From: an uncultured Trueperaceae bacterium
GTDB taxonomy: Bacteria; Deinococcota; Deinococci; Deinococcales; Trueperaceae
Direction of reading: 5' to 3'
Length of the DNA stretch: 64,000 nt
NCBI GenBank assembly: GCA_963727505.1
Contig: CAVSGP010000004.1
Location: 960,001-1,024,000, forward strand
A model generated the notes under the pieces. That model was not told where the DNA came from, did no database searches, and worked only from the letters and a program-made list of their open reading frames with translations. Shown one piece after another: positions 1-61,469 of this stretch. Each line of letters opens with the position of its first letter. Positions within the stretch are counted from its first letter, which is position 1. Both the position numbers and the translations under genes were made by a program.

Positions 1-375
1 GTCGGGAAGCTCCCGGTAGTCCGCTTCCGGCGTGGCCGAGGAGAAGAAGCAGTAGAGCCTCAGCACCTCCGGCCCGGGGTTGACGGTGGCGTGGCGGGCG
101 CCGGCGGGGACGATCCAGGCGTCCCCCTCTCCCACGCGCGTCCACCTGCCCTCCACCCACAGCGCGCCGCGCCCCCGCGCCACCACGATGACCTCCTCCA
201 TCGTGTCGTGCACGTGCGGCACGCGGGGGCTGGCATCGTCCTGCGGCTCGACATCGACCGTGCGGAACGAACAGGAGGCGGCGGAACCGGTCCGGGCCGA
301 GAACACCTCGCGCACCGAGCGGTTGGGGAGCCGGTACGCCTCCACCTCGTCGATGGTGCGCACGCTCGCCTTCAT
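1..375 (-). CDS. Cupin-domain protein (3' end runs off the window)
   Basis: Not in the ORF track. Read by hand from ATG at 375 (GAGGA SD): MKASVRTIDEVEAYRLPNRSVREVF...PHVHDTMEEVIVVARGRG...GDAWIVPAGARHATVN, which has both cupin motifs (HxH...E and G...P.G..H...N). Confidence 0.85.
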   Translation of the reverse strand, partial: MKASVRTIDEVEAYRLPNRSVREVFSARTGSAASCSFRTVDVEPQDDASPRVPHVHDTMEEVIVVARGRGALWVEGRWTRVGEGDAWIVPAGARHATVNPGPEVLRLYCFFSSATPEADYRELPD

Positions 376-454
376 GCGTTCCTCGTCGCCATACGAGATC
401 GCTGCCGCCGCGCATCCGCCGCCCGTCGCAGACCGGACGTCCGGCGCCGCCGGC

Positions 455-1234
455 TCATGCTGATCCGTCCGGCAGCTCGGCCATGGCGGCGCTCGCCTCG
501 CGCACGTCGGCGGCGATGCGGTCGGCCACGCCCGCGACGACGCGGGCCGCCTTCTCCGCCGTCGCCTGTTCCGGCGCGCCGTACCAGCCTGTCGCAGCAA
601 TCTGACGGACGTCGTGGAGCACCGGCCGCACGTTGGGGTTGCGGCGCACCGCGTCGATGCGCCGGCCGCGGCCGGGAGGCGAAGGGTTGGTGGCACGCTC
701 CACGTGGACCAGGGCGGGGTCGAAGGCCAGCACCGGCAGGACCTCCAGCTCGCCGCCGTGGGTGAGCCCGCCGGTCTCGTCGCCGAAGAGGTCGCGCGCC
801 ACGTAGCAGGCCTCGACCTTGAGGACCTCCATCCCCAGCTCGTGGTGGATGCGGCTGGCCGCGACGCCGATGGCGTCGCTGTTGCCCTCGTGCCAGTTGA
901 GGATGACGACGCGCTCGGCGCCATGCTGGGCCACGCTGCCCGCGAGATCGAGCATGACCGCCACGAAGGTCTCGGGGCGGAGCGTCACCGTGCCGGCGAA
1001 CCCCATATGGAAGGGCGTGATGCCCATCGGCGCGAACGGGACCACCAGGGCCCCGAGCCGCTCGGCGACCGCCCGCGCGAACACCAGCGCCGCGATCCAG
1101 TCGGTCCCGCACGGCAGGTGAGGGCCGTGTTGCTCCACCGAGCCGGTCGGGATGATCACCGTCTTGCTGGCCTCCAGCAGCGCCTCGGCCTCGGGCTGCG
1201 TGATGTCCATCAGGTCGTTGGGGTGGGTCGTCAC
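455..1234 (-). CDS. Creatininase/creatinine amidohydrolase family protein
   Basis: Motifs GSVEQHGPHLPCGTD, NWHEGN, HGGELE. GTG start at 1234 with GGAGG SD. The longer ORF-track start overlaps the ferredoxin gene. Confidence 0.9.
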   Translation of the reverse strand: MTTHPNDLMDITQPEAEALLEASKTVIIPTGSVEQHGPHLPCGTDWIAALVFARAVAERLGALVVPFAPMGITPFHMGFAGTVTLRPETFVAVMLDLAGSVAQHGAERVVILNWHEGNSDAIGVAASRIHHELGMEVLKVEACYVARDLFGDETGGLTHGGELEVLPVLAFDPALVHVERATNPSPPGRGRRIDAVRRNPNVRPVLHDVRQIAATGWYGAPEQATAEKAARVVAGVADRIAADVREASAAMAELPDGSA

Positions 1235-1242
1235 GTTCCTCC

Positions 1243-1551
1243 TCAGCCTTCCGCCGAAGCGGTGTCCGCCGGGTCCACCCTGCCCAGCAGCGTCACCACG
1301 TCGGTGGTGTTGTGCAGGATCTCGTCGGGGAACACGATGGTGATGGCGTTCGTCGGGCACACGGACTCGCAGTGACCGCAGTACCAGCACTCGTCCGGGA
1401 ACGCCACCACCGGCAAGGTCTCCCGGTCGCCCTCCTCCTTGTAGATGATGTCGCCGGGGCACACCCAGTCGCACAGCGTGCACCGGATGCAGGTGTTGGG
1501 ATCGATCTGGATGGGATTGTGCGCGCTCGCCGCGCCGTCGCCATGTTCCAT
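1243..1551 (-). CDS. 2x[4Fe-4S] ferredoxin (AsfB/AprB-like)
   Basis: CIRCTLCDWVCP and DECWYCGHCESVCP motifs; lies directly downstream of the flavoprotein. Confidence 0.9.
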   Translation of the reverse strand: MEHGDGAASAHNPIQIDPNTCIRCTLCDWVCPGDIIYKEEGDRETLPVVAFPDECWYCGHCESVCPTNAITIVFPDEILHNTTDVVTLLGRVDPADTASAEG

Positions 1552-1558
1552 GCTCGTC

Positions 1559-3283
1559 CTAGCCTCCCTTTCCTGGTTGCCGTCGCGGGAACGCCGAGGC
1601 GAGCGGCATCTGCGCCGACAGCGTGGTCACGCTCGGTCCCTCGGCCGTGCGGTCGACCAACACGAAGGAACGCCAATGGGCGTTGTCGGTCTCGGGATAG
1701 TCGATGCGCCAGTGCGCCGATCCGGTCCGCGTTTCCTGGCGCTCCAGCGCCGCCTCGGCGAGCAGCTCCGCGTTCAGGCGGATGTTGCGCGCCTCGTGCA
1801 CACGCATCAGGCCGTGCGTGTGTGTCGCACCCAGCGCTGCCCCCTCGCGCCGCAACGCCCGCAAGGTGTCGAGCGCGTGGCGCAGTCCGCGCTCGGTGCG
1901 CCGTACGCCGGCGAAGTCGGTGACCGTGTGCCGGATGCGATCCTCGAAGGCCTGCCAGGAGGGACCGCCTGGCTGCCGGAGATGGACGGTCGCCTCGCCG
2001 ATCAGCCGTTCCAACTCGCCGGGGTCCACCTCGGGCAGCGTGCCCCCCTCCTTGACGTACTGCACGATGCCCTCCCCGGCGATGTGGCCCAGCGTCGCCG
2101 CTCCGGCGATACCGCCGCTGACCGTAGCGCTGTCGCCTGCCGAGAACAGGCCGCGGACGGACGACTCGGCGTTGGCGTCGACAGCGATGCCGCTGCCGCG
2201 GAAGTAGAGCCCGCTTCGGCGGATGCTGAGCTCGGAGATCGACACCTCGACGGGGTCGGTGCGGAAATCCACGCCCTTCTGCCGGTAGAACGCCGGCAGG
2301 GTGTGCCGGTCGATCTGCAATGTCTCCTCCATGTGGTCGAGAACGTCGGTGGGGAGGTGGCGGCAGTCGAGGTAGATGGGACCGTTACCCTCCAGATACT
2401 CCTTGATGACGCCGTCGGCAAGCACGGCCCGGCGCGCGTTCTCCCCCTTGGGATCGTAGCGGAACATGAAACGCTCGCCCTGGCGATTGAGGAAGTAGGC
2501 GCCCAGGCTGACGAGCGCGTTGAGCCCCTGGGTCGAGAAACCCTTGGGGGTCAGCGTCGTCTCCGTGAACTCCATGTTGGCCAGGGTGGCGCCGGCGCGG
2601 TAGCCCATCGCCTGGGCGTCCCCGGTGTTGTACGGGCAGTGCCAGCTATCGAAGGCGAGCCCCGAAGCGTTCATGGACAGGCGGTTGACGTCCCCCGTCG
2701 AAAGCACCACGGCGCGCGCCCGCACGTAGTACCAGGCGCCAGAACGGATATCGAAGGCCAGCACGCCGTAGGCGCGGCCGTCCTCCACCAGCACCTGGAC
2801 CCCCATGGTGCGAGCCAGCACGGTGGCCTTGCCCCGCCGCACGCGTTGACCGATGTGGTGCTTGAAGCGGGTGCCGTCGAAGTTGATGTGGTAGGCGCCG
2901 GGAAGCCCGAACGAGCGGTGGCGGTCGTAGGTCCCGGTACGCGGGTCCTTGAAGTCGACGCCCAGCGCCTCGAGCTTGCGCAGCACGCGCGGCATCTCGC
3001 GGACCACCCGGTCGGTGACTTCCATGTCGACGATGCCGTCGGTCAGGTCGGGGATGTGCTTGAGGAGGAACTCCGGGGTGTCCCATTCGGGCCCCGTCTC
3101 CATGATCGTCAGATAGTGGTCGACGCCGCCGCCGACCGAGCCGCTGCGTTCGAGCAGCTTGCCCTTGTCACAGATCACGACCTCCAGCCCGGCCTCCAGC
3201 GCCGGGATCGCTGCCATGCAGCCGGCGACCCCACCGCCGACCACGGCAACGTCGGTCTCGAGCCGGATCACGTCGTCGTTCAC
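1559..3283 (-). CDS. FAD-dependent oxidoreductase, SdhA/FrdA/AprA superfamily (AsfA/AprA-like)
   Basis: VVGGGVAGCMAA Rossmann motif, ERSGS, NTGDAQAMGYRAGATLANME, GLFSAGD, C-terminal RQETRTGSAHWRIDYPETD; GTG start with AAGGAGG SD. Confidence 0.85.
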   Translation of the reverse strand: MNDDVIRLETDVAVVGGGVAGCMAAIPALEAGLEVVICDKGKLLERSGSVGGGVDHYLTIMETGPEWDTPEFLLKHIPDLTDGIVDMEVTDRVVREMPRVLRKLEALGVDFKDPRTGTYDRHRSFGLPGAYHINFDGTRFKHHIGQRVRRGKATVLARTMGVQVLVEDGRAYGVLAFDIRSGAWYYVRARAVVLSTGDVNRLSMNASGLAFDSWHCPYNTGDAQAMGYRAGATLANMEFTETTLTPKGFSTQGLNALVSLGAYFLNRQGERFMFRYDPKGENARRAVLADGVIKEYLEGNGPIYLDCRHLPTDVLDHMEETLQIDRHTLPAFYRQKGVDFRTDPVEVSISELSIRRSGLYFRGSGIAVDANAESSVRGLFSAGDSATVSGGIAGAATLGHIAGEGIVQYVKEGGTLPEVDPGELERLIGEATVHLRQPGGPSWQAFEDRIRHTVTDFAGVRRTERGLRHALDTLRALRREGAALGATHTHGLMRVHEARNIRLNAELLAEAALERQETRTGSAHWRIDYPETDNAHWRSFVLVDRTAEGPSVTTLSAQMPLASAFPRRQPGKGG

Positions 3284-3311
3284 GGCAAGCCTCCTTCACG
3301 GCAGGGCACCC

Positions 3312-4433
3312 TCATCCGTCGTACCGCAGGATCTCGATGCCTGCACCCCCCCGATCACTGGTGAACGCCAGACCATCCGCCTGGACGAACACGTCGTTGG
3401 TCTGCGGGTGGACGTCCCCCTTCGACGGCGGGACATGGCTGGCCACCTCGACCGGGGCGCGGGGGTCGGAGCAGTCGTACGCTCGTAGCCCCCCACTGAA
3501 GTAGGTCACGAAGATCAGCGTTTCACTCGAGAACGCACCAGGGCGGTTCTCGTGCAGGTTGTGGGGCCCGAAGCGGGGTCCGTGCGTGCGCACGGGCCCC
3601 TCGGGCTCCGGGAACGTCGAGAGCTCCTTGGGGTGGCTCTCGTCCTGGATGTCGAAGACCCGAACGAGCCGAGGCGTGGCGTCGTGCTCGGGCGTGGCCT
3701 TGGCCTCGTCGGTCACCACCAGCAGCCCGCGGCCGGGTAGCGGCATGGTGGTGTGGGTGTGTCCCCCGTGCTCGGGCGCCCAGGCAGCCGAGCCGACCAC
3801 CGTAGGCCGGCTCGGGTCGTGGATGTCGAGGATGCGCAGGCCACCGTCCCACACACCTGCATAGGCGCGATCACCGTGGCGAATGGCATGGTGGAGCTTG
3901 GGGTTGATGGTGTCCGGCCAGGCAGGCACCTCGCCGCCGGCCTCCCATTGGCCTGGCATCCACCAGCGGCCGGTCTCGCGGGGGCGCGCCGGATCCGAGA
4001 CGTCCACGATCAGCAGCATGCGATCGCGGAAACCCGGGGCGACGGCCGATAGGTAGACGGTGGGCTCGAGCTCGTCACACCACATGCGGTGCACGCCCCG
4101 GCCGCCGGTGTCGTAGAACGACACCTGGCGCGGATGCGCGGGATCGCTCAGGTCGAAGATCCCGAAGCCGGTACGCTCGGCCCGTTCCCCGGCGCGCCAC
4201 TCGTAGTTGACGAAGAGCAGGTCTTGGACGATCTGCACTTTGGGTGACATGGTGTTGGCGTAGCCGGGTAGGAAGCCCGCGAGGACGGGTTCGCGCGGAT
4301 CGGACACGTCCAAGACCGCGGTCCCGACACCGGGTTCCATGTTGCCGACGTAGAGGTGCCGGCCGTGCGACATGAGCTGCATGGTGCTGCCCTTGCTGCC
4401 GAGATCATGATGACCGAGAAGTTCGAAGCCCAT
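3312..4433 (-). CDS. LVIVD-repeat (beta-propeller) protein
   Basis: Repeated [VL]xD[VL]SDPxxP units, GGLRILDI, GGLRAYD; conserved His motifs (VHRM, LHHA, HTHT, GPHN). Confidence 0.85.
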   Translation of the reverse strand: MGFELLGHHDLGSKGSTMQLMSHGRHLYVGNMEPGVGTAVLDVSDPREPVLAGFLPGYANTMSPKVQIVQDLLFVNYEWRAGERAERTGFGIFDLSDPAHPRQVSFYDTGGRGVHRMWCDELEPTVYLSAVAPGFRDRMLLIVDVSDPARPRETGRWWMPGQWEAGGEVPAWPDTINPKLHHAIRHGDRAYAGVWDGGLRILDIHDPSRPTVVGSAAWAPEHGGHTHTTMPLPGRGLLVVTDEAKATPEHDATPRLVRVFDIQDESHPKELSTFPEPEGPVRTHGPRFGPHNLHENRPGAFSSETLIFVTYFSGGLRAYDCSDPRAPVEVASHVPPSKGDVHPQTNDVFVQADGLAFTSDRGGAGIEILRYDG

Positions 4434-4445: not shown

Positions 4446-5465
4446 CTACTGGATTTTGGCGACCGCCTGCTTGAGGATCGGCACGATGCTCTGACCGGCC
4501 GCGGCGATCTGTCCGACCTTCGGTTGCTCTTCCGCGCCCTGCATCGGCACGATGATGAGCCCCTGCTTCTTGGCGTCGGCCAGCAGGCCGGGATCGTGCA
4601 GCGCCGCCCAGACGGCCGAGCGCATGGCGCTCACAGCGGCATCGGGCATGCCGGGAGGGCCGAAGAAGCTGCGGTGCATGGTGATCATGTTGACGATCGC
4701 CTGAACGAGCTCCTTGCCCTGGCCCTGGGTGACCTCGAGGGCCGTAGGCACGTCGGGGTAGCCCGACTCGCGCGCGTCGCCGATGGTCAGGATCGGCCGC
4801 AGATCGCCAGCCTGGATGCCCGACAGCGAGGAGTGCCAGGCGGTGATGTGTCCGTCTCCCTCACCCTTGATGACGGCCAGGGTGGTGTCGGCGTTGCCCT
4901 GGTAGCCGGTGACGGCCTTGAGCTCGAAGTTCAAGGCGTAGGCCAGCACCGCCATGGTGTAGAAGTCCTCGTCGGTGCCCTGCGTCGGGAAGATGAAGGG
5001 GCGACCGAGGTTCTGGACGTCCTGCATGGTCTGGATCTTCGACTTACCGCCCACCACCAGCACGCGCGCCTCGGTGGCGGCGCGCCCCAGGTAGACGAAC
5101 TTGGTGGCGTCGAACTCGACGCCCTGGCTGCCGGAGAGCTGTGCCAGCACCAGGGCCGGCACGCTCGTGAAAGCGATCGTCATGCCGTCGGGCTTGGCGT
5201 GCCAGAGGTAGTTGGCACCCACCACGCCGCCCGCGCCCTGCATGTTCTTGACGCGCACGTCGGCCGCGCCGAGGTGCTTGGCGATGTAGGGGGCGATCAT
5301 GCGGGCGTACTGCGTCATCTGGCCGCTCGGGCTGTTGGGCAGGATCAGGGTGACCGTCTTGCCCTTGTAGTAGTCCGAGCCGCTCTGGGCCATCGCCATC
5401 CCGCCTACGAGCGCGAGCGCGGCGATCAGCCCTACCATGATGTTGAAGCGTGCCTTCCGTCCCAC
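4446..5465 (-). CDS. tctC: Tripartite tricarboxylate transporter substrate-binding protein (TctC/Bug family)
   Basis: Signal peptide, YYKGKTVTLI, NMQGAGGVVGAN, KPDGMT, GYQG, PDVPT, PPGMP. Probable GTG start at 5465 after GGAGG. Confidence 0.85.
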   Translation of the reverse strand: MGRKARFNIMVGLIAALALVGGMAMAQSGSDYYKGKTVTLILPNSPSGQMTQYARMIAPYIAKHLGAADVRVKNMQGAGGVVGANYLWHAKPDGMTIAFTSVPALVLAQLSGSQGVEFDATKFVYLGRAATEARVLVVGGKSKIQTMQDVQNLGRPFIFPTQGTDEDFYTMAVLAYALNFELKAVTGYQGNADTTLAVIKGEGDGHITAWHSSLSGIQAGDLRPILTIGDARESGYPDVPTALEVTQGQGKELVQAIVNMITMHRSFFGPPGMPDAAVSAMRSAVWAALHDPGLLADAKKQGLIIVPMQGAEEQPKVGQIAAAGQSIVPILKQAVAKIQ

Positions 5466-5543
5466 AGTTGCCTCCATGTTCCGGTCGTGTCTGGCGTGAG
5501 GTCGTCGATCGTGGTTCCTTCGCCTCCACTCCTTCCCGACCGC

Positions 5544-6077
5544 TCAGAGCGGTCCCGGCAAGATGCCGTGATACATCTGGGTGTTCAGCAGCACGACGAA
5601 GAGCAGGTACAACGCCCCGCTCACGCCGATGGAAAGGGCCAGCGCGCTGTACCAGCGCAAGCGCCCGATGGCGGCCGCGTCGCCGAGCACGAACAGGAAG
5701 ATGCCCACGATGGGGCCGAGAAGCAGCACCAGGCCAAGAAGCACCGCCAGCAACACGAACGCGATGACCTCGCGGCGCGCGTGCGTGCCGGGCGGGTGGA
5801 CCGTGGCGGCTTTCGTGCGTGACGCCCGCGCCTTGTCCTGCACACCCTCGCGCGCGCTTCGCCGCGTCAGCACCTCCAGGACATCGACATGCAGGTCGTC
5901 CGGCGAGCCGGTGTTCTGCACCACCAGCTGAGCGATCACCAACACCAGCGAGAACACCGCAACCGGCACGGGCACCAAACGCGAGCGTGGTCCGTAGCCC
6001 ATGCTGATGATGATCACGGCGACCAAGATGCCGACCAGCACCACGCCGAGGATGTTCTCCTGGGCACGGCGGCTCAT
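5544..6077 (-). CDS. tctB: Tripartite tricarboxylate transporter small membrane subunit (TctB)
   Basis: About 4-5 hydrophobic segments, positioned between tctA and tctC, ATGA overlap with tctA. Confidence 0.8.
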   Translation of the reverse strand: MSRRAQENILGVVLVGILVAVIIISMGYGPRSRLVPVPVAVFSLVLVIAQLVVQNTGSPDDLHVDVLEVLTRRSAREGVQDKARASRTKAATVHPPGTHARREVIAFVLLAVLLGLVLLLGPIVGIFLFVLGDAAAIGRLRWYSALALSIGVSGALYLLFVVLLNTQMYHGILPGPL

Positions 6078-7576
6078 GGTTCCCTCGCGTCTGCGGCCGC
6101 CCGCCGGCGCGCCATTCGCCGGCGCACGATCGGAAATGCCGTGGTGAACAGGATGAACAGGAACATGGCTAGCGTGACGGGACGCGTGAAGATGAAGGTG
6201 CTTCCGTAGAGGGTCAGCGAGATGTGCAGATCGCGCTCGATCATGGTGGCCAGCACCATGCCGATCACGAAGTCGGCGCGGGAGAAGTTGTACTTGTCCA
6301 TCGCGTATCCGACGACGCCGAAGACAGCGGCCACGATCACGTCACCGACGCGCCCGTTGGTCGCGTATGCGCCCATGAAGCACACTGCAAGCACCACGGG
6401 CACCAGGTAGCGGGCCGGCAGGGTGGCCGAGCGCGCCAGCGTCTTGGCACTGAGAAGCCCGATCACCGTGGTGAGGATGTTGGCGATCACGATGATCCAC
6501 ACCATGGTGAACACCAGGCTCAGGTTGGTGGTCAGCATCTGGCGCCCTGGCGTGATGCCCATGTTGATGAAGGCGGCCAGCAGGATCGCCATGCTCTCGC
6601 CGCCAGGGATGCCGAAGGCCAGCGTGGGGAGCAGGCCGCCGCCTTCGGTGGCGGCCAGGGTGGCGTCCGGCCCGATGACGCCCTCGACCGCGCCGTGACC
6701 GAAGCGCTCGGGGTGTTTCGAGGTCTGGGCGGCCTGCGCATAGGCGGCGATGCCGCCGACACTGGCGCCGACCCCCGGCAGCACCCCGATCCAGAGGCCG
6801 AGCACGCTGGAGCGCAACACCAGCCACCAGTGGCGGAAGGTGTCCTGGACCCCGTCCCACACGGTGCTCGACTCGGCATCGACCTGCGCCTCCACCACCG
6901 AGCCGCCCTTGACGAAGAGCTTCAGCATCTGCGACACCGCGAACAGTCCGATCATGGCGACCGGGAACGAGATGCCGTCGAGGAGGAAGAGGCTGCCGAA
7001 GGTGTAGCGGGCGGTGCCGGTGATGGGGTCCATGCCGATGAAGGCGACCAGGATGCCAAGGCCGGCGGCGATGAGCCCCTTGAGCACCGAGCCTTCGCTG
7101 AAGGTCGCGATGATGGTCAGGCCCCAGAGCGCCATCATGAAGTACTCGCTGGGTCCGAGCGCCAGCATCAGCGGTCGGACGACGGGGATGGTGGCCACCA
7201 GGAAGACCGCACCGATGATGCCCCCGAGCAGCGCGGCCATGGCCGAAGCTCCGAGAGCCCGCGCGCCTTCGCCGCGCTGCGTCATGGGATAGCCGTCGAA
7301 GACGCTGGTGATGGTCTTGGCGGCGCCCGGCACGTTGAACAGGATGCCGGTGATGGAGCCGCCCCAGACGGTGGCGGCATGAGCTCCGAGAAGGAGGGCC
7401 AACGCGGCAGCCGGTTGGAACCCGAAGGTGAAAGGCAGGACGAGCGCCATGGCGACGATCCCGCCCAGGCCGGGCAGGACGCCGATGATGAGCCCGTAGA
7501 TCACCCCGACGACCATGAAGAGCATCGACTGTGGCGTGAACAGTGCCAGCAAGCCAGTCACCGCTGCGGCGATCAC
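6074..7576 (-). CDS. tctA: Tripartite tricarboxylate transporter large permease (TctA)
   Basis: 500 aa, GVLPGLGG, ILFNVPG, DGYPM, GMDPITGTARYTFG, PTLAFGIPG. Confidence 0.92.
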   Translation of the reverse strand: MIAAAVTGLLALFTPQSMLFMVVGVIYGLIIGVLPGLGGIVAMALVLPFTFGFQPAAALALLLGAHAATVWGGSITGILFNVPGAAKTITSVFDGYPMTQRGEGARALGASAMAALLGGIIGAVFLVATIPVVRPLMLALGPSEYFMMALWGLTIIATFSEGSVLKGLIAAGLGILVAFIGMDPITGTARYTFGSLFLLDGISFPVAMIGLFAVSQMLKLFVKGGSVVEAQVDAESSTVWDGVQDTFRHWWLVLRSSVLGLWIGVLPGVGASVGGIAAYAQAAQTSKHPERFGHGAVEGVIGPDATLAATEGGGLLPTLAFGIPGGESMAILLAAFINMGITPGRQMLTTNLSLVFTMVWIIVIANILTTVIGLLSAKTLARSATLPARYLVPVVLAVCFMGAYATNGRVGDVIVAAVFGVVGYAMDKYNFSRADFVIGMVLATMIERDLHISLTLYGSTFIFTRPVTLAMFLFILFTTAFPIVRRRMARRRAAADAREP

Positions 7577-10140: not shown

Positions 10141-10225
10141 GGCGAACCACCTCCCCTGCGGGCGCCCGGAGGCCCCACATGGTCCGGGCGCCCTTGGCGC
10201 CCGGTCGCTTGGTTGCGATGGCGCC

Positions 10226-10266
10226 ATTCTAGGGGGCAGCCAGCAACGATGTCAATTTTCAATTTT
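10226..10266 (-). promoter_or_regulatory. Sigma70-type promoter of the suyAB operon with AAAATTG direct repeats
   Basis: Minus strand: AAAATTG-AAAATTG-ACA, TTGACA (10255-10250), 18 nt, TAGAAT (10231-10226). An AT-rich patch in high-GC DNA. Confidence 0.8.
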
Positions 10267-11638: not shown

Positions 11639-11708
11639 CGCTCGCTCGCGTTCGAACACGCCACGCGACGCGGCGAACGGGGACGGTGCTGCCTGAGGTG
11701 CGGCGTGT

Positions 11709-53333: not shown

Positions 53334-54397
53334 GGCAGGTACCTCCGGTGCCAGCCCTCCCCGGCGCCCTCCATCGCAGGCGCGCCGCCATAGCGGCGGT
53401 GGTCGTGCCACGGCAGCGCGCCGTCGGCGCGAGCGGAGATGGCACGAAGGTAGGGTAGCGCTCGCGACCGCAGCTGCTCTTCGACCGCCGCCGCGTCGGG
53501 GTAGGCCTCGAGGGCCTCCAGCCACACCGCGCGGCCCGCCAGGAAGCCGCTCGCACCGGCATCGAAGGCGAGCTCGAGATCGATCTCGAACTCGGCCGGC
53601 CCGACGCCCGCGCTCAGCAGCACCCAGGGTGCGGGGCAGGCATCGTCGAGCTCCGCCAGGAAGCCGCGTACCTCGTCCAAGGAGAAGAGGGCGGGGCGCT
53701 CGCGACCGTCGAAAGCGCCGCCGTGATAGCCACGGCAGTGCTTGAGGTCGGCGGGGAACTCGAGCTTGAAGACGTCTACCCCGAAGCGCGGCTCGGCGAA
53801 GCGCCGCACGGACGCGAGGACGCGCTCGGGACGACGCGCCTGGTACTCCGGCGAGGCGGGGTCCTCGCCCGGTTTCGGGTAGACCAGCAGCTCCAAGATG
53901 AACGGGATGTCGCTCACCCGGCAGGCCTCGCCCACCTCGGCCACCAGCCGTTCCTGGTGCGCGCGCGTCGCTTCCGAGGTGTCGGGGCGATACCAGGCCA
54001 GCAGCTTGACGCCGGACGCCCCTGCGCGTTTGATGGCCCCGACGCTCCATCCCTCGATGAGCCTGGAGCGACGCTCCCCGTCGATGACCTCGAAGCCGTA
54101 GTCCTCGAGCGTGCCGATCAGCGCGGTGCTGCCGGGAACGGCCGACAGGGCGGTGGCGTGCGTCCAGACCGGATCGATGAGGATCGCGCCCGCCTCCGGG
54201 GCCAGCACCCGGGTGAGGAGCGCCTTGGCTTCGGCCACCTCATCGAAGCTCAGGCTCTGCGGGTCCCGGTTGCCGGCGCGCGCCAGCGCCTGGAACAGGG
54301 GCGGACGTTGATCGACCGCCACCATGCGGAACACGCCGTCGTCGTCGGCGAGCGTCATCATCGCGCGCAACTTGCCGGCACTCAGGGTCTTACTCAT
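53330..54397 (-). CDS. Class I aldolase, LacD/YihT family (tagatose-bisphosphate or sulfofructose-phosphate aldolase)
   Basis: MVAVDQR, ILIDP, GWSV, GVKLL.WYRPD, FILELLVY, DVFKLEFP, PWVLLSAGV, GASGFLAGRAVW. ATG at 54397 after GGAGGTG. Confidence 0.88.
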   Translation of the reverse strand: MSKTLSAGKLRAMMTLADDDGVFRMVAVDQRPPLFQALARAGNRDPQSLSFDEVAEAKALLTRVLAPEAGAILIDPVWTHATALSAVPGSTALIGTLEDYGFEVIDGERRSRLIEGWSVGAIKRAGASGVKLLAWYRPDTSEATRAHQERLVAEVGEACRVSDIPFILELLVYPKPGEDPASPEYQARRPERVLASVRRFAEPRFGVDVFKLEFPADLKHCRGYHGGAFDGRERPALFSLDEVRGFLAELDDACPAPWVLLSAGVGPAEFEIDLELAFDAGASGFLAGRAVWLEALEAYPDAAAVEEQLRSRALPYLRAISARADGALPWHDHRRYGGAPAMEGAGEGWHRRYLP

Positions 54398-54553
54398 GCT
54401 CACACCTCCACCGTCATCGTCACGGAGTCCATCTCGATTCATCGGTCGGGACCATGGTTCGGGACCATGGGTCGCGTGCGTCTGCCGCGGACGTGCTGCG
54501 GGTTCCGGGGCTGGTTCCTGCTGCGGCATCCGGAGCCGTGGCGCTGGCCGCCA

Positions 54554-55489
54554 TCAGCGCGGGGGCGTCCCGGCGTCCGGGCGCGCATCCCCCGGCCCGG
54601 TGGCAGTGCGGAAGGCGACCACGTCGTCGTGGCTGGGCAGTCCGGCGCGCGCACCGAAGGCGCGGCACGCCATCGCCGCCGCCGTAGCCGCGTAACGGGC
54701 GGCCTCCTCGGCGGATGCGCGCCGCGCGATAGCGGCGGCGTACGCGCCGTGAAACACATCGCCCGCGCCGGTGGTGTCCACCGCCTCGACGCGCGGGGCG
54801 GACACGTGCAGGGTGTGCTGACCCTCCAGCAGCAGCACCCCCTCCGCACCCAGGGTGATCCCCACCACCTGATCGGGGCGCCGCCGCAGGCGCGGCAACG
54901 CCGCCTCGGGGTCGTCCCGGCCGATCAGCTCCTGCGCGCACTCGCGCGCCACCAGCAGATGATCGGCCAGGCCGGCATCCTCCCAGTGGCGGAGGTTGCC
55001 GTAGTCGGCAACGACGGGGACGTTGCCGGCGCGGGCGGCCTCGGCGGCGGCGCGGCACAGGCGAGGATGCCTCAGGTCAACGAGCACCGCCCCGGTCCCT
55101 TCGAGGAAACCGGCCGGCAGGTGGGAGGGGTCGTCCTCGAGCCCGCTCCCGCGGTAGGGGAAGATCCACCGTTCCCCGTCGGGCGCCACCAGCACGGCGC
55201 TGACGAACGTGCGCGCGCCGGGCAGCCGGTGCACGCCGGAGACGTCCACCCCATGCGCCTCGAGATCGACGAGGGCGGTGCTGCCGGCAGCGTCGTCGCC
55301 GTGGAGCGCCACCAACGCGGCGGCCACCCCGAGGTGCGCGGCCGCCGCGGCGGCCGTGGCGGCCGGCCCACCTCCCTGCGTCCGGTAGGCAGTGGCGTCG
55401 GTGCGCGAGTGGACCGGCGGGAAGCGCTCGACCCGCCACACGTGATCCAGACACGACAAACCGACACACACCACACGCGGCCCACTCAC
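54554..55489 (-). CDS. PfkB family kinase, YihV (sulfofructose kinase)-like
   Basis: RVVCVGL..LD, GGGPAATAA, SAVLVAPDGER, YxxxxL, VLVDLR, VDTTGAGDVFHGA. Confidence 0.85.
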   Translation of the reverse strand: MSGPRVVCVGLSCLDHVWRVERFPPVHSRTDATAYRTQGGGPAATAAAAAAHLGVAAALVALHGDDAAGSTALVDLEAHGVDVSGVHRLPGARTFVSAVLVAPDGERWIFPYRGSGLEDDPSHLPAGFLEGTGAVLVDLRHPRLCRAAAEAARAGNVPVVADYGNLRHWEDAGLADHLLVARECAQELIGRDDPEAALPRLRRRPDQVVGITLGAEGVLLLEGQHTLHVSAPRVEAVDTTGAGDVFHGAYAAAIARRASAEEAARYAATAAAMACRAFGARAGLPSHDDVVAFRTATGPGDARPDAGTPPR

Positions 55490-56889
55490 GAGCGCAGATA
55501 GGACGCCGGGGGCAGCGCCGGCAGGACGTCCGCACCGAGGTAGGCGCAAAGCTCGTAGAGCGCTTCCACCCGGTCGCCGCGACCGAAGGCGAGGTGGTGC
55601 GGCAACCGCCTGTCGAGCAAGTTGGCGACGAAGGCGCGCACATCGACGGGGCTCTCACCCCAGCGTAGTCCTCCGATCCAACCGCGGACGCCGTCGTAGC
55701 CCACCTTCTCCTCGCGGCGTACCTCGCCGCCGACGATGACGGCGCGCCCCCCGGAGCTCAGCAGCCGGAAACCGGTCACGGGACCGGCCCGCAGGCGCAT
55801 GTCGCGCACGACGCCGGTGCCGTCGCGGTTGAAGTGCGTGGTGAGACGGGTGTCGGGACCCCCCGAAGGTCCCGGCGCCGCCCACGCCACGGGCGCGTTG
55901 CCGCAGTGCCAGACCTGGAGGCTGTCGTCGGCCTCGTCCACGTCGGAGAGGTCCATGAGGATGGCGGGGTCGCCGCTGACGCCCTGCAGCGCGAGCATCG
56001 ACAGCGCTCCCATCACGTCCCCCTCGCAGGCGGCGGGCACCTCGCGGCCGCTGGAGTCCCCCATCGCGGCGCATGCCATCGAATCGCAGGTGTCCGGCAC
56101 CTCCGGCCAGCACCGCACGGCCAGTGCCGTTGCTCCCGTCTCCTCGGCCAGCCTCTCGAGGGCGGCGTCGATCCGCGCGCCTCGGACGAGCTGCTCGAAC
56201 GATACGTCCGCGCGCTCGCGCTCCTGCCAGCCGCGAGCCCGCGCCTCGGCCTCGGCTTCCGGCACCGCCGCCACGCGCTCGAACAGCGCCGCCAGGTCGC
56301 GCGCGACGACCTCGACCCCCTCGAAGGCGGGCGCCTCCTGGAGTCCGTAGAAGCCCGGCGCGGTGCCACCGATCGCCAGGATGCGGGCGCTGTGCACCGC
56401 AGCCAGACCGCGAAGGGCACCTATCGTGGCCGCGAACCGTCGCCCGAACTCCGGGTCGTCGGGCAGGCCGTAGAACCACTTGACGGGCTCGGACTTGGCG
56501 ACCTGGGGCGCGTCCAGCAGCGAGAGCGTCATGTTCAGGCCGCACAGCGAGTTGAGCGGCAAGGGCCCCTCGCGCCAACCGCCCGCCCGCTCCGGCACGC
56601 CCCACAGGCCGACCCGCTCGGCGGCCGCGAGCAGGGGCGCGACCACGTCGCCGGTCGCGAACGTGGTGAGCTGCACCAGCAGGTAATCGAGGCCCTCTTC
56701 GGCGAGCACGCGGGCCGCTCGCGCGGCCTCGGGCGCGTCCCGCACCGCCTGCACAGGCGCGACCAGCTCGAAGCCGAGCCGCTCCGCCAGCCTCTCCATA
56801 CCTTCGAGGCTGCGGCGCGCAGCCGCTGCGCTGTCCCCCTTGAAGGCGGGCCGCGTCACCGAGACGAACCCGATACGGGGTCGGATCAT
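55486..56889 (-). CDS. L-fucose isomerase-fold protein, SqvD/SftI (sulfoquinovose isomerase)-like
   Basis: RPAF, QLTTFATG, LWGVPE...GPLPLNSLCGLN, TAPGFY, VRCWPE, ACEGDVMG, WHCGNAP, HFN, PHHL. Confidence 0.8.
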   Translation of the reverse strand: MIRPRIGFVSVTRPAFKGDSAAAARRSLEGMERLAERLGFELVAPVQAVRDAPEAARAARVLAEEGLDYLLVQLTTFATGDVVAPLLAAAERVGLWGVPERAGGWREGPLPLNSLCGLNMTLSLLDAPQVAKSEPVKWFYGLPDDPEFGRRFAATIGALRGLAAVHSARILAIGGTAPGFYGLQEAPAFEGVEVVARDLAALFERVAAVPEAEAEARARGWQERERADVSFEQLVRGARIDAALERLAEETGATALAVRCWPEVPDTCDSMACAAMGDSSGREVPAACEGDVMGALSMLALQGVSGDPAILMDLSDVDEADDSLQVWHCGNAPVAWAAPGPSGGPDTRLTTHFNRDGTGVVRDMRLRAGPVTGFRLLSSGGRAVIVGGEVRREEKVGYDGVRGWIGGLRWGESPVDVRAFVANLLDRRLPHHLAFGRGDRVEALYELCAYLGADVLPALPPASYLRS

Positions 56890-59000: not shown

Positions 59001-59026
59001 CGAGATTCGATCGGGGAACGGATCCC

Positions 59027-60292
59027 CTACTGGGACAGGATGTCCTGCAGTCCTGTCTGCATCTTCTTGAGCGTCTGATCGACGGTCAGCGACCGAGCGA
59101 AGAAGGCGTTCATGGTGGTCCGGATCAGGTTGCTGACGTCGGGATAGAGCGGCGTCACCGGCCTGGGCCGAGCGTTGATGATGACGTCGTAGAACTGCGA
59201 GAACTGCGGGGCCGCCTCGAGCACCGCCGGATCCTTGTAGAGGGACTTCCGCGCCGGGATGTTGCTGGCCTTCACCGCCAGCGTGCGCTGGCTGTCCTCG
59301 CTCGCCAGGAAGCGCATCAGCTTGAAGGCGTCCTGCTTGTGCGCGCTGTAGGGGTTCATCGCCCACTGCCAGCCCCCGACGCACGTCGCAGAAGAATTGC
59401 CCTGGAAGGCGGGCAGCGGCGCCACGCCGACCTTGCCCTTGACGGCGCTGTCCTTGTCGGCCTGGAAGTGCGCCCACGCGTAGCCCCAGTTCAGCATGAA
59501 CACCACGTCGCCGGACTGGAACATCTTACGGGAGTCGTCGGTCCCGACCGAAGCGATGTCAGGGATGGTGATGCCCGACGAGAGCGTCTCGTTGTACCAG
59601 TCGAGCGCCTGCTTGCCGGCCGCCGTGTCGACGGTGATGTTGCCGTTGGCGTCGCGCCAGTTGCCGCCTGCCGTCCACAGCGCCTCGAGGAAGGTGCAGT
59701 TGGTGCCCTCGATGGCGGCGCCCTGGTAGTTGAAGCCCTGGAGCCTGGGGTTGTTCTCCCCCTTCATGATGGTGAGCGCTTCGCTCTTCAGCTCTTCCCA
59801 GGTCTTGGGCGGCTTGAGACCGTACTTGTCGAGCAGGTCCTTGCGGTAGTAGAGGAACTGCGCGTCGGTGAAGGCGGGGACGGCGTACAGCTTGCCGTTC
59901 ACCGTATCGGCGTTGACCGGGCCGGGCAGGAACGACGCGAGGTAGGTCTTCTCCGCGTCGGGGCTCGCGAAGTAGCTGTTGAGCGGCTCGGCCCAGCCCG
60001 AGGCTGCGTACTGCGCGGGCCGCACGACGTCGATGAGCATCACGTCGATCGCCGACGACTTGCTGGTGAGCACGGTGCTCAGGTACTGCTGCTGTACATC
60101 ACTGGTCGCACCGCCCACCTCGAAGGTGGCGTGCATGTCGGGGTTCTCGGCGTTGAACTTGTCGAGCAGGGGCCCGATCACGTCGGGTCGCTGCTGACCG
60201 CCGATGAAGACCTTGAGATTCACCTGGGCGGCGCCGGTCGCGAGCAGCGCGGCGAACGCCAGGGCGAGCAGGATGCGGGTGAGTCGGTTCAT
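59027..60292 (-). CDS. Carbohydrate ABC substrate-binding protein
   Basis: Signal peptide MNRLTRILLALAFAALLATGAAQ, LYYRKDLL, PKTWEEL, GVAPLP, RPVTP. Confidence 0.92.
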   Translation of the reverse strand: MNRLTRILLALAFAALLATGAAQVNLKVFIGGQQRPDVIGPLLDKFNAENPDMHATFEVGGATSDVQQQYLSTVLTSKSSAIDVMLIDVVRPAQYAASGWAEPLNSYFASPDAEKTYLASFLPGPVNADTVNGKLYAVPAFTDAQFLYYRKDLLDKYGLKPPKTWEELKSEALTIMKGENNPRLQGFNYQGAAIEGTNCTFLEALWTAGGNWRDANGNITVDTAAGKQALDWYNETLSSGITIPDIASVGTDDSRKMFQSGDVVFMLNWGYAWAHFQADKDSAVKGKVGVAPLPAFQGNSSATCVGGWQWAMNPYSAHKQDAFKLMRFLASEDSQRTLAVKASNIPARKSLYKDPAVLEAAPQFSQFYDVIINARPRPVTPLYPDVSNLIRTTMNAFFARSLTVDQTLKKMQTGLQDILSQ

Positions 60293-60339
60293 GATTACCT
60301 CCGGAATCGTCTTGGGTCGTTGGCGAACGGACGGGTCGT

Positions 60340-61374
60340 CTACGCAGGCGGCACCTCCATCGTGGCGGGGGGACCCGTGCTGTCTCGGACGATGAGCTGG
60401 GTCGCCAGCCGGACCGACTGGACGGACCCGCCGGCCATCAGGGTGAGAAGCGCGTCGAAGGCCATCTCGCCAAGGCGGCGTGTCGCCTGCCGGACCGAGG
60501 TGAGGGCGGGGCGGGCCACGGCGGCGAGCGGCGTGTCGTCGAAGCCGACCACCGAGACGTCGCCGGGTACGCAACGGCCCGCCGCCGCAAGGGCGCGCAA
60601 CGCCCCCAGAGCGACCAGGTCGTTGTTCGCGAGCACGGCCTCGAAGCGCGTTCCGCCGGCGATCAGGCGCGCGCAGGCCTCGGCGCCGCCCGTGCGACTG
60701 TCGTCGGTGGGCACCAGCAGCGAGCGGTCGGCCACCAGCCCGAAGGTCTCGACTCCGGTCCGGTAGGCACGGATGCGCCGTTCGGCGTAGCGCGAGCCGC
60801 GGGGCCCGCTCAGGAACGCCACCCGTCGTAGACCGAGCTGCTCGAGGTGCGCCAGCGCCTGCCACACCCCGGCGCGCTCGTTGCTGCCGATGCTCACCGC
60901 GTCGAGGCTTCGCGGGCCGGCATGGATGGCGACCACCGGATAACGAGCGGTGATCAGGCGATTGAGGCCGTCGACGTCGTCGTCGGTCACGCTGGATCCG
61001 AGCACGAGCAGGCCGTCGACACGACCCTCGCGCAGCCACAGCGTGAAGTCGGGACGGGGCGCCGTTGAGAGGAGCAGCGGGAAGCCTGCCTCCTCGGCCC
61101 GGCTGGTGACGCCGAGCAGGAGCTCGCTGAAGTAGGGGTTGGCGAAGACGAGTTCGGAGCTCCGGGGAAGCATCAATCCGACGGCCTGCGCCCTGCGGCG
61201 GGTCAGCGCCCGGGCTGCGGCGTCGGGACGGTAGCCAAGCGTGTCGGCGAGCTCCCGGACGCGCGTACGGGTGGCCGCGGCGATCTGGGGGTCGTCCCGC
61301 AACGCACGCGACACCGTGGAACGGGCCAACCCCAGCCGCTCGGAGAGGTCCTTCAGAGTGAGCTTGCGCCTCAC
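60340..61374 (-). CDS. LacI family transcriptional regulator
   Basis: TLKDLSERLGLARSTVSRAL, LGYRPDAAARAL, VSVVGFDD, PALTSVRQ, LIVRDST. Confidence 0.93.
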   Translation of the reverse strand: MRRKLTLKDLSERLGLARSTVSRALRDDPQIAAATRTRVRELADTLGYRPDAAARALTRRRAQAVGLMLPRSSELVFANPYFSELLLGVTSRAEEAGFPLLLSTAPRPDFTLWLREGRVDGLLVLGSSVTDDDVDGLNRLITARYPVVAIHAGPRSLDAVSIGSNERAGVWQALAHLEQLGLRRVAFLSGPRGSRYAERRIRAYRTGVETFGLVADRSLLVPTDDSRTGGAEACARLIAGGTRFEAVLANNDLVALGALRALAAAGRCVPGDVSVVGFDDTPLAAVARPALTSVRQATRRLGEMAFDALLTLMAGGSVQSVRLATQLIVRDSTGPPATMEVPPA

Positions 61375-61445
61375 ACTCGACCGCCCGTCTCCCCGCCCCG
61401 ATCGGCCCACGACGCGCGGCCCTCAGGGACGATGCGGAAGCTACT

Positions 61446-61469
61446 TCGCAACCGGTTGCGACAACGGTA
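61446..61469 (-). promoter_or_regulatory. LacI-type operator next to an extended -10 box
   Basis: Perfect 16-bp palindrome TCGCAACCGGTTGCGA (61446-61461) with central CG; minus-strand TGnTACCGT immediately upstream. Confidence 0.8.

Follow-up and report, generated by a model that had tools for sequence, protein, structure and literature searches.

The stretch analyzed here, called the window from this point on, comprises 64,000 nucleotides (positions 960,001 to 1,024,000, forward strand) of contig CAVSGP010000004.1 from assembly GCA_963727505.1, an uncultured Trueperaceae bacterium. Three of its loci concern us. The first is a packed run of minus-strand genes, from 11734 down to 455, which contains a suyAB pair; the second is a short plus-strand operon of cuyA, cuyB and a 2-hydroxyacid dehydrogenase gene; and the third is a minus-strand sugar operon, from 61410 down to 51253, encoding in this order a LacI regulator, a substrate-binding protein (SBP), two permeases, a FucI-like isomerase, a PfkB kinase, a LacD-family aldolase and two Gfo/Idh/MocA oxidoreductases, GFO2 and GFO1. 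A first-pass annotation, made from the sequence letters, had described three such loci within 64 kb, and all three were recovered in place when 80 open reading frames (ORFs) of the window were scanned against Pfam and 35 against NCBIfam. Judging from sequence similarity, conserved residues and gene context, the window probably encodes a self-contained route by which a single organism could convert sulfoquinovose (SQ) or SQ-glycerol to sulfite.

ORFs were chosen by their third-position G+C, the G+C content of the window being 70%. The genome behind the window is 97% complete. For comparison we used 16 related loci and a sample of 121 Trueperaceae genomes, with the unpublished genome G033 included in the isomerase and CuyA tallies. 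All 16 loci came from Trueperaceae, Deinococcales or Deinococcota records of metagenome-assembled genomes (MAGs), or from MAG records without a name, which bears out the earlier guess that the DNA belongs to the Deinococcota. This soil or sediment organism is thus placed in the radiation-resistant Deinococcus group. Parts of the sugar operon (51300–61200) were present in 13 DNA sequencing runs from seven studies, covering sediment, soil and, in small shares, salt-marsh metagenomes. As a control for the NCBIfam scan, E. coli YihT, E. coli YihV and Cupriavidus SuyB were run through the same models. They received names as generic as those of their counterparts in the window, so generic NCBIfam names carry little information here.

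Binding Protein and Layout of the Sugar Operon

The sugar operon is headed by the LacI-family regulator (60340..61410, minus strand; Pfam LacI and Peripla_BP_3), which also precedes the operon in related loci L005–L007, L009 and L017. It is followed by the SBP (59027..60220, minus strand, for the mature part; the true start lies further upstream), a predicted SmoF-like binder of SQ or SQ-glycerol, and by two CUT1-type ABC permeases (57826–58947 and 56897–57844, minus strand; Pfam BPD_transp_1). Across the 16 related loci, the isomerase and kinase genes stand side by side in 15 (one locus being truncated), the aldolase gene comes next in 11, GFO2 and GFO1 follow in 13, and the SBP is present in 10; the permease pair is syntenic in 10 loci. 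Directly upstream of the LacI regulator lies a gene for a GAF-PAS-GGDEF-EAL signalling protein (61519–63999, minus strand), which runs off the window.

When the SBP was compared with proteins of known structure, the best match was SmoF (PDB 7nbz), with 375 bits and 48% identity, ahead of a maltose binder with 252 bits. SmoF is the sulfoquinovosyl-glycerol binder of Agrobacterium, in which the sulfonate is surrounded by Thr220, Gly166, Ser43 and a water molecule held by His13 and Gln46, as described in the SmoF paper. In a HMMER alignment, four of these five residues (Ser43, Gln46, Gly166 and Thr220) were identical in the window protein, and His13 was replaced by Gln. The Ser, Gly and Thr are found in all eight Deinococcota orthologues and the Gln in seven. 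By comparison, Gln46 differs in MalE3, in a trehalose/maltose binder and in a third sugar binder, and Thr220 differs in two of these three.

A search of plasmid sequences with the SBP returned 19 records at E ≤ 1e-60. Three of their contexts were opened: two were canonical sulfoglycolytic Entner–Doudoroff (sulfo-ED) clusters and the third was a Deinococcus cluster. The sulfo-ED clusters, from Rhizobium sp. WSM4643 and Shinella sp. HZN7, comprise a dehydratase, an aldolase, a lactonase, a short-chain dehydrogenase/reductase (SDR), an alpha-glucosidase of the YihQ type, a TauE/TSUP protein and a succinate-semialdehyde dehydrogenase (SSADH). Their SBPs are 47% (Rhizobium) and 46% (Shinella) identical to that of the window. 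These comparisons support the assignment of the operon as a predicted sulfosugar operon, with the transporter as the strongest evidence, and they bear out the earlier suggestion of a sulfoglycolysis-like sugar operon, as the SBP is SmoF-like and 47% identical to SBPs of canonical sulfo-ED clusters.

Isomerase, Kinase and Aldolase

The FucI-like aldose-ketose isomerase (55486..56889, minus strand) is a candidate SQ isomerase of the SqvD/SftI kind, encoded by the single such gene in the genome. Its sole NCBIfam match at E ≤ 1e-5 was the SftI model NF048012, and no Pfam family matched at 1e-5. By sequence, it is a remote relative of SftI/SqvD. Relatives in Parasedimentitalea and Paracoccus seriniphilus, with 26–28% identity, were set aside; they sit in a different, DhaK-type cluster.

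The PfkB kinase (54554..55480, minus strand; start uncertain) is a candidate sulfofructose kinase. Its best PDB match was YihV (7ag6), with 142 bits, compared with 97 bits for the best ribokinase; with E. coli YihV it shares 36% identity. The sulfonate of the YihV substrate is bound by the triad Lys27-Arg138-Asn109. Arg138 is kept in all eight orthologues, Lys27 has become Arg in all eight, and the catalytic Asp244 of the GXGD motif is kept.

The aldolase (53330..54529, minus strand; start uncertain), a candidate sulfofructose-1-phosphate aldolase, belongs to the class I LacD/DUF2090 clade and matched NF009498 with 307 bits, above the cut-off of 184. It keeps the Schiff-base Lys193 of YihT as well as Arg253 and Ser226. 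Orthology with YihT fails, and the two probably share fold and chemistry while belonging to different clades. A full-text literature search for PDB 8tnf, an unannotated DUF2090 structure and the best structural match of the aldolase, gave no paper that was relevant by its title, and no paper pairing sulfoquinovose with DUF2090 was found.

Relatives of the aldolase occur in Shinella sp. HZN7 plasmid pShin-03 (42% identity; L046) and Rhizobium sp. CC-CFT758 (41%; L047). Among the relatives with 40–42% identity, a gene annotated as PfkB or "sugar kinase" lay alongside in all three contexts opened, and each context contained an SSADH gene, a TSUP/AEC exporter gene, or both. The pShin-03 kinase, which was the one neighbouring kinase compared, is 44% identical to YihV. 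The Shinella and Rhizobium clusters both consist of LacI, an ABC transporter, a zinc-dependent alcohol dehydrogenase, a sugar kinase, the aldolase, an SDR, an enolase-superfamily protein of the mandelate-racemase type and a TSUP protein, to which Shinella adds an SSADH. The aldolase clade can thus be tied to sulfonates through its gene context in Rhizobiaceae. These clusters also resemble cluster 2 of the Paracoccus wurundjeri paper.

The same features bear on whether the substrate might be another sulfosugar, such as sulfofucose, processed via sulfotagatose and sulfotagatose-1-phosphate. With LacD closer to it than YihT, the aldolase is tagatose-bisphosphate-like, the isomerase is fucose-isomerase-like, and the related Rhizobiaceae clusters carry SDR and mandelate-racemase genes, as the sulfofucose ED cluster does. 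An Embden–Meyerhof–Parnas (EMP)-like sulfofucose route has moreover been proposed for a PF00294 and PF01791 pair in P. wurundjeri (PMC12421959). The SBP points the other way, being 48% identical to the SQ-glycerol-binding SmoF and 47% to the SBPs of SQ sulfo-ED clusters. Sulfofucose is also much rarer than SQ, and the selectivity of LacD aldolases for the configuration at C3 and C4 is known to be loose. We consider a sulfofucose operon quite unlikely and continue with SQ as the probable substrate.

Deinococcus Sister Cluster and the Gfo/Idh/MocA Pair

The Deinococcus cluster found through the SBP lies on plasmid pDEIPE01 of D. peraridilitoris (L029, 86289–105557). It has SSADH and GntR genes and, divergent from these, genes for an SBP, two permeases, an isomerase, a kinase, an aldolase, a GH31 protein and an AEC transporter. 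Identities to the window proteins are 48% for the SBP, 50–53% for the permeases and 40% each for the isomerase, kinase and aldolase. With its aldehyde dehydrogenase and its exporter, this layout is the classic tier-1 design, in which the C3 sulfonate leaves the cell; the Trueperaceae copies have neither.

In the Trueperaceae operons, GFO2 (52275..53300, minus strand) and GFO1 (51253..52251, minus strand), both assigned by Pfam, occupy the place of the GH31 and exporter genes of the Deinococcus cluster. We propose the pair as a glycosidase and an aldehyde dehydrogenase, because exactly these two functions are absent by comparison with Deinococcus and exactly two oxidoreductases are extra. GFO1 is a candidate for either function, as an NAD-dependent sulfoquinovosidase or a sulfolactaldehyde oxidoreductase. 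It has a basic loop, RRPYRxGxxGWK, followed by E-x3-H, which is invariant in eight of eight orthologues; in GFO2, the EKP, RPK and D-x3-H motifs are likewise invariant (8/8).

A precedent is the NAD-dependent sulfoquinovosidase SqgA, which holds the sulfonate with Arg166, Lys172 and the backbone of Leu170, and has Tyr136, Glu189, His193 and His321 as catalytic residues (PMC10755693). In a single alignment of GFO1 with SqgA (8qc2), with an inferred offset of 13, Arg166 corresponds to Arg147, Glu189 to Glu170 and His193 to His174; Lys172 falls on Gly153, and the alignment does not extend to Tyr136 and His321. Membership of GFO1 and GFO2 in GH188 was considered and is not established, given the weak SqgA scores and the unmatched Lys172. 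One of the two, GFO1 or GFO2, may be an NAD-dependent sulfoquinovosidase.

The single GH31 protein of the genome was rejected for the same role. Of the YihQ sulfonate triad, taken as Arg301-Trp304-Tyr508, Trp304 is replaced by Arg and Tyr508 by Phe, and the protein scored 139 bits against NF007746, which has a cut-off of 553 (E. coli YihQ scored 1247). In two related loci, L017 (5743–6600) and L013 (4203–5069), a xylose-isomerase-like TIM-barrel gene adjoins the sugar operon. TIM-barrel lyases of this kind serve oxidative glycoside cleavage together with Gfo-type dehydrogenases. The genome behind the window has no homologue of the L017/L013 gene.

The highest NCBIfam scores of both GFO1 and GFO2 were to IolG, i.e., the inositol dehydrogenase type, at 129–134 bits. 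This raises the question of whether the operon serves a neutral sugar, either a 6-deoxyhexose cleaved to lactaldehyde or an inositol-like compound handled by IolG-, IolC- and IolJ-like genes, in which case the proximity of cuyAB would reflect chance or shared regulation. Such a reading fits the source annotation "L-fucose isomerase", the NCBIfam name tagatose 1,6-diphosphate aldolase, the best NCBIfam model of the kinase (ribokinase, under its cut-off, with a weak match to IolC), the weak DUF2090 match of the aldolase and the lack of a YihQ-type glycosidase. It is hard to reconcile with the SBP, which groups with SmoF and the sulfo-ED SBPs and keeps the sulfonate contacts; with the invariant four-residue basic loop of GFO1, which suits an anionic substrate; and with the adjacency to cuyAB across eight genera in spite of changing neighbours. 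Known YihV and YihT, furthermore, receive the same generic names. An inositol pathway was rejected specifically, IolB, IolD and IolE being absent from the operon by Pfam and the SBP being SmoF-like. A neutral-sugar operon is in our view very improbable, and we retain the sulfosugar assignment in what follows.

The cuy Operon and Its Linkage to the Sugar Operon

The cuy operon encodes a predicted D-cysteate sulfo-lyase, CuyA (41899..43032, plus strand; the model match begins near 42034), a predicted cysteate racemase, CuyB (43029..43787, plus strand), and a D-2-hydroxyacid dehydrogenase (43784..44737, plus strand; Pfam 2-Hacid_dh). The genes are tightly coupled: the TGA of cuyA overlaps the ATG of cuyB (ATGA, 43029–43032), and the stop of cuyB overlaps the GTG start of the dehydrogenase gene at 43784. 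CuyA scored 528.6 bits against NF052482 (cut-off 450), with TIGR01275 next at 323 bits and the DcyD models at 290–313 bits, under their own cut-offs. CuyB scored 262 bits against NF052483 (cut-off 190). The possibility raised in the first-pass annotation, that CuyA might be a true DcyD, is ruled against, since both proteins exceed the NCBIfam equivalog cut-offs. By these curated models the sequence assignments of CuyA and CuyB are firm; the flow of sulfosugar carbon through them is an inference from conserved adjacency. The operon itself contains no CuyZ, RidA or transporter genes.

The third protein of the operon is phosphoglycerate dehydrogenase-like and 43% identical to a hydroxyacid dehydrogenase of the Rhodococcus suyAB cluster, with which it shares its NCBIfam profile. 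SlcC belongs to the D-isomer-specific 2-hydroxyacid dehydrogenases, and both 2-hydroxyacid dehydrogenases of the window fall in that family by Pfam. We read the cuy-operon enzyme as a candidate (S)-sulfolactate dehydrogenase of the SlcC kind, a function that would be dispensable for the use of cysteate alone.

The set of cuyA, cuyB and dehydrogenase genes is found together in the window and in L010, L011, L017 and L019. In L011, L017 and L019 it is convergent with the sugar operon and lies directly after GFO1. In L010, an ABC transporter with a phosphonate-binding-type component (PF12974; 16022–19450) is inserted between the two operons, and may import another sulfonate. An AsnC regulator, a peptide-type ABC transporter and a membrane protein separate the operons in the window, as they do in its close relatives. 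Eighteen genomes, including this one, carry the isomerase (at least 50% identity) and CuyA on one contig, and in 15 of these the two are within 20 kb of each other. The exceptions are G003, G038 and G104, and the proximity holds in eight of nine evaluable genera. Because the other flanking genes vary between genomes, the adjacency of isomerase and cuyA itself appears to be what is kept. Of the Trueperaceae operons examined, none had an exporter gene inside or next to it, in contrast to the clusters of Deinococcus, Rhizobium and Shinella, where AEC, TauE or TSUP genes occur together with SSADH.

Several neighbouring genes deserve mention. An 809-amino-acid ORF (37906..40335, minus strand; Pfam Aldedh at residues 49–495) is one candidate for a sulfolactaldehyde dehydrogenase; it shares 41% identity with the SSADH from a sulfo-ED cluster, and homologues lie near cuyA in L017 and L019 as well. 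The ORF contains a complete Aldedh domain, after which the same frame continues into the first half of another (profile positions 15–237), and the L019 homologue also extends past the first domain, to the end of that locus. This double arrangement may reflect a gene fusion, a relic or an error of the assembly. A DeoC deoxyribose-phosphate aldolase (40889..41965, minus strand; TIGR00126, 149 bits, cut-off 117) is a conserved neighbour of cuyA, also present in L017 and L019, and a role for it in a sulfonate pathway is doubtful. In this genus, a 6.5-kb insertion separates the cuy operon from the sugar operon; it includes a gene for a 773-amino-acid polytopic membrane protein (48969–51290, plus strand). 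By eye, the central soluble part of this protein is methyltransferase- or spermidine-synthase-like; no Pfam family matched at 1e-3.

The suy Operon

The first gene of the suy operon encodes a second D-2-hydroxyacid dehydrogenase (10649..11734, minus strand; Pfam), which is 36% identical to the cuy-operon enzyme and 35% to that of Rhodococcus. It is followed by a SuyA-like small subunit with a SAF domain (9862..10227, minus strand; start uncertain) and a SuyB-like large subunit with GD_AH_second and GD_AH_C domains (8694..9848, minus strand), together a predicted (R)-sulfolactate sulfo-lyase. The small UxaA subunits share 46% (Rhodococcus), 40% (Paracoccus) and 32% (Cupriavidus) identity with SuyA. 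SuyB is 71% identical to the Rhodococcus koreensis protein and 59% to those of Paracoccus versutus and Cupriavidus pinatubonensis.

NCBIfam lacks a model for SuyB, and Cupriavidus SuyB gives the same single weak match as the window protein. Among 466 plasmid records matching SuyB, 13 showed 57–71% identity, followed by a gap down to 41% or less. Five contexts of the upper group were opened, and all five were sulfonate clusters, with SuyBs 59–71% identical to that of the window: R. koreensis, which also has genes for an aldehyde dehydrogenase and a ComC-like protein of the Ldh family; P. versutus, with a sulfate-exporter-family gene; C. pinatubonensis, with hpsN, hpsO, a major facilitator superfamily (MFS) transporter and an alcohol dehydrogenase before suyAB; Methylobacterium oryzae, with TauE, an Ldh-family protein and a molybdoenzyme; and Rhodobacteraceae SC52, with a tripartite ATP-independent periplasmic (TRAP) transporter, a hisD-like gene, an SDR, an alcohol dehydrogenase, an Ldh-family protein and an exporter. 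One match at 41% that was opened lay in a fucose cluster, among GH95 fucosidases. The earlier concern that SuyAB might be an altronate-dehydratase-type paralogue is thereby answered in favour of SuyAB, which groups with the 57–71% set.

Downstream of suyB lies a third Gfo/Idh/MocA oxidoreductase, GFO3 (7592..8653, minus strand; Pfam), possibly the missing second sulfolactate dehydrogenase. Next comes a TctCBA tripartite tricarboxylate-type transporter (4446..7576, minus strand; Pfam TctA, TctB and TctC), a candidate sulfolactate importer; a TctC gene follows suyB in C. pinatubonensis as well. The tail of the operon (455..4433, minus strand; Pfam and NCBIfam) encodes an LVIVD propeller, an SdhA/AprA-like flavoprotein, a 2×[4Fe-4S] ferredoxin and a creatininase-family protein. 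A GntR/FCD regulator gene (11709..12428, minus strand; Pfam) precedes the operon, as GntR-family regulators also accompany suyAB in Rhodococcus, Paracoccus and Methylobacterium. Divergent from it is a NitT/TauT-family ABC transporter of the SsuABC/TauABC-like kind (12466..15435, plus strand; NCBIfam). It scored 79 bits against SsuA_fam (cut-off 163), its permease is nearest to SaoP, TauC and SsuC, and its ATPase shares 42% identity with the ABC ATPase encoded upstream of suyAB in Paracoccus.

SuyB was found in nine of the 121 Trueperaceae genomes, all of this genus. The 574-residue flavoprotein, the one tail gene searched, was present in three of 201 Deinococcota genomes, again all of this genus and at the same distance from suyB. 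As both are confined to the genus, the whole operon looks like a genus-level acquisition. A tblastn search of plasmids with the flavoprotein gave only matches of 30–34% identity, its protein-atlas clusters were generically SdhA/AprA-like, and an FAD protein of equal length beside Methylobacterium suyAB was 27% identical. An AprAB-like oxidation of sulfite by the tail genes is conceivable and finds no support in these comparisons. The suyAB genes would provide a second, independent exit to sulfite and an entry point for imported sulfolactate.

Two further groups of genes lie between the suy and cuy operons. A cluster at 17821–22723 (plus strand) comprises a TetR regulator, a FabH-like ketosynthase, an AMP-dependent ligase and two alpha/beta hydrolases. 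A Tdh-Kbl pair (threonine dehydrogenase and glycine C-acetyltransferase; 33930–36508, minus strand) exceeds both equivalog cut-offs and represents ordinary threonine catabolism; the Tdh-like candidate for a sulfolactaldehyde dehydrogenase considered in Paracoccus is another protein.

Rest of the Genome and Probable Connection of the Two Tiers

The functions reported as not visible by the first-pass annotation were looked for again. In the window, an aldehyde dehydrogenase is visible after all (the ORF at 37906–40335), and the absence of TauE, ComC-type and aspartate-type aminotransferase genes stands. Genome-wide, the proposed search turned up five or six TauE genes outside the window and no Ldh_2/ComC gene. 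The genome further has one SorA-like, sulfite-oxidase-type molybdoenzyme with a dimerisation domain, and, on contig 9, a GabD-like dehydrogenase that scored 638 bits against a cut-off of 646 and is 56% identical to the SSADH of the Deinococcus cluster. YihS and YihR have no homologue in the genome, YihQ and the MFS transporters were not found, and the best relative of YihU, on another contig, is 35% identical. The Xsc route was rejected, as the best genome match gave 255 bits against a cut-off of 676.

These results leave room for the view that both tiers are encoded and yet unconnected, as a "sulfonate neighbourhood" in which the sugar operon would excrete sulfolactate or 2,3-dihydroxypropane-1-sulfonate (DHPS), with CuyAB and SuyAB using imported cysteate, sulfolactate and DHPS. 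CuyA is near-universal in the family (103/121 genomes), often without the isomerase; the suy operon has tripartite tricarboxylate and ABC importers of its own; no sulfolactaldehyde dehydrogenase or aminotransferase has been assigned; and the TauE genes lie elsewhere. On the other hand, there is no exporter in or beside the Trueperaceae operons examined, unlike in the tier-1 clusters of Deinococcus, Rhizobium and Shinella. The cuy-operon dehydrogenase would be superfluous for cysteate alone, and the two operons are adjacent in 15 of 18 evaluable genomes. Probably, the tiers are linked as part of the SQ-to-sulfite route, and we regard their separation as unlikely.

Proposed Pathway

In the proposed route, the SmoF-like ABC system would import the sulfosugar, as sequence, contact residues and gene context suggest. 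The FucI/SqvD-like isomerase would then form sulfofructose, the YihV-like PfkB kinase sulfofructose-1-phosphate, and the class I LacD/DUF2090-clade aldolase dihydroxyacetone phosphate and (S)-sulfolactaldehyde; these three steps are suggested by the protein families, the gene order and the presence of the same triad in D. peraridilitoris. Oxidation of sulfolactaldehyde to (S)-sulfolactate may be carried out by GFO1 or GFO2, by the aldehyde dehydrogenase near cuyA or by the GabD-like protein of contig 9. The SlcC-like dehydrogenase of the cuy operon would yield sulfopyruvate, a housekeeping aminotransferase would convert this to L-cysteate, and after racemisation by CuyB, CuyA would release pyruvate, ammonium and sulfite. 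In this genus, the suyAB operon with its own transporter could also cleave sulfolactate, internal or imported, to pyruvate and sulfite. Sulfite might be exported by one of the several TauE proteins or oxidised by the SorA-like molybdoenzyme.

Several observations weigh against this proposal. The isomerase reached 124 bits against NF048012, far short of the cut-off of 700, over a full-length alignment (model positions 6–437 of 443). The kinase does not have the Asn109 of YihV, which is Pro here and Arg in Deinococcus, and the aldolase scored 244 bits with 8tnf and 141 with LacD, compared with 76 for YihT. The first-pass annotation had named a grouping with non-sulfonate paralogues as what would refute its idea, and for the most part this refutation does not succeed; the kinase, nearest to YihV, came out on the sulfonate side, and the aldolase, nearer to tagatose-bisphosphate aldolases and a DUF2090 structure, and the isomerase, with 124 against 700 bits, are the weaker cases. 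For glycoside cleavage, there is no recognisable YihQ-type sulfoquinovosidase gene in the genome and none in the operon by Pfam. SqgA is not the closest relative of GFO1 (62 bits, with 12 other PDB proteins scoring higher) or GFO2 (38 bits). The GH31 protein of the Deinococcus cluster, too, is not of the YihQ type, scoring 482 bits with the alpha-xylosidase YicI and 241 with YihQ; possibly it represents a third type of sulfoquinovosidase, or the substrate of that cluster is another sugar. No genes have been assigned for a sulfolactaldehyde dehydrogenase, an aminotransferase or a sulfite exporter.

The linkage has its weaknesses as well. Of the 121 Trueperaceae genomes, 103 have CuyA and 60 the isomerase, so that CuyA often occurs without the isomerase, and CuyAB must also serve other purposes. 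The relatives compared are not independent samples, and some of the 18 genomes are the same as the 16 loci. A distance of 41 kb separates suyAB from the sugar operon here, and one of about 95 kb in G068. No RNA runs were listed for 51300–61200.

The suggestion of the first-pass annotation that one organism runs both tiers therefore fares well on sequence and context, with the correction that the conserved partner of the sugar operon is cuyAB and not suyAB. A more specific version can be formulated: an undescribed, complete SQ-to-sulfite pathway with a hybrid sulfo-EMP core (SqvD-like isomerase, YihV-like kinase and a new class I aldolase clade), a Gfo/Idh/MocA pair of which one member is an NAD-dependent sulfoquinovosidase outside GH188 and the other oxidises sulfolactaldehyde, and conversion of the C3 product, instead of its excretion, via sulfopyruvate and cysteate by CuyB/CuyA. 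We put this full combination forward tentatively, as a possibility that is more doubtful than not. If it held, it would be the first tandem of sulfoglycolysis and cysteate degradation and would make these organisms the first SQ degraders in the Deinococcota.

Comparison with Known Systems

About 10 billion tonnes of SQ, an abundant sulfur-containing sugar of plants, are produced per year. If the proposed route is correct, sulfoglycolysis would be tied to CuyAB instead of SuyAB. In the accepted two-tiered view, primary degraders excrete C3 sulfonates that secondary degraders mineralise (PMC12890257, PMC13436972); a widespread family of soil, sediment and saline habitats, with the isomerase in 60 of 121 genomes, would then bypass the two tiers. 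BLAST surveys keyed to YihQ, YihS and YihT would overlook these organisms, and the operon would offer candidates both for the sulfoquinovosidase of clusters without GH31 or GH188 and for the "missing" sulfolactaldehyde dehydrogenase. Judged by titles and the beginnings of abstracts, no report of SQ catabolism in Deinococcota was found among the papers listed. Two 2026 reviews contained no mention of "Deinococc" or "Truepera", and none of the papers listed combined "Truepera" with a sulfonate term. Hybrid sulfo-EMP clusters and a tandem of sulfosugar degradation with SuyAB are already known; new, and as far as we found not reported, is such a variant in Deinococcota.

A close relation in chemistry is the sulfo-EMP pathway of E. 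coli (YihS, YihV, YihT, YihU and YihQ). The inferred reactions are the same, the kinase is of the YihV kind, and the aldolase, a class I member of the same LacD superfamily, keeps the Schiff-base Lys and Arg253. The window differs in its FucI-like isomerase, its ABC import and its aldolase clade, and there is no DHPS-forming reductase or exporter in the operon. Sulfo-EMP2 uses the isomerase SqvD, the PfkA-type kinase SqiK and the class II aldolase SqiA, and hybrid clusters mixing isozymes have been described (PMC9594981). A FucI-family isomerase replaces YihS in these systems and in the window alike, whereas the window has a PfkB/YihV-type kinase, a class I aldolase and a remote isomerase, with no SqvB or YihQ gene in the operon. 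SqgA (GH188) shares the Gfo/Idh/MocA fold family with GFO1 and likewise comes from a cluster without a GH31 sulfoquinovosidase; GFO1 is about 330 residues long, compared with about 390 for SqgA.

In Paracoccus wurundjeri, a sulfofucolytic ED pathway operates in tandem with SlcC/ComC and SuyAB in one bacterium, a coexistence of tiers that the paper calls "unusual" (PMC12421959, 2025). Both systems would cleave a sulfohexose to sulfolactaldehyde and then desulfonate it, and they have in common suyAB, an SlcC-like dehydrogenase (a candidate in the window) and the lack of a classical sulfolactaldehyde dehydrogenase. The P. wurundjeri system is of the ED type, acts on sulfofucose and ends in SuyAB, whereas that of the window would be of the EMP type, probably acts on SQ, has CuyAB as its conserved partner and has no ComC.

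Roseovarius nubinhibens reportedly degrades sulfolactate via sulfopyruvate and cysteate. The CuyA/CuyB cysteate pathway has been described for Bilophila wadsworthia and Ruegeria pomeroyi, and the reverse steps linking sulfolactate, sulfopyruvate and cysteate for Paracoccus (PMC11193023). CuyA and CuyB of the window match the curated models of this pathway, and conversion of sulfolactate via sulfopyruvate and cysteate, ending with CuyA, is known from secondary degraders. Neither the translational coupling of cuyAB to an SlcC-like dehydrogenase gene nor its position beside a sulfosugar operon was found described. The suy operon, finally, has the two-subunit UxaA-type lyase of the C. pinatubonensis hpsNOP-suyAB and Paracoccus suyAB-suyZ clusters, with 59% identity in the large subunit. 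It shares a GntR-family regulator with Paracoccus, whereas Cupriavidus has LacI; and in place of HpsN/O/P, ComC and SuyZ it carries a Gfo/Idh/MocA gene and the genes for the propeller, flavoprotein, ferredoxin and creatininase-like protein.

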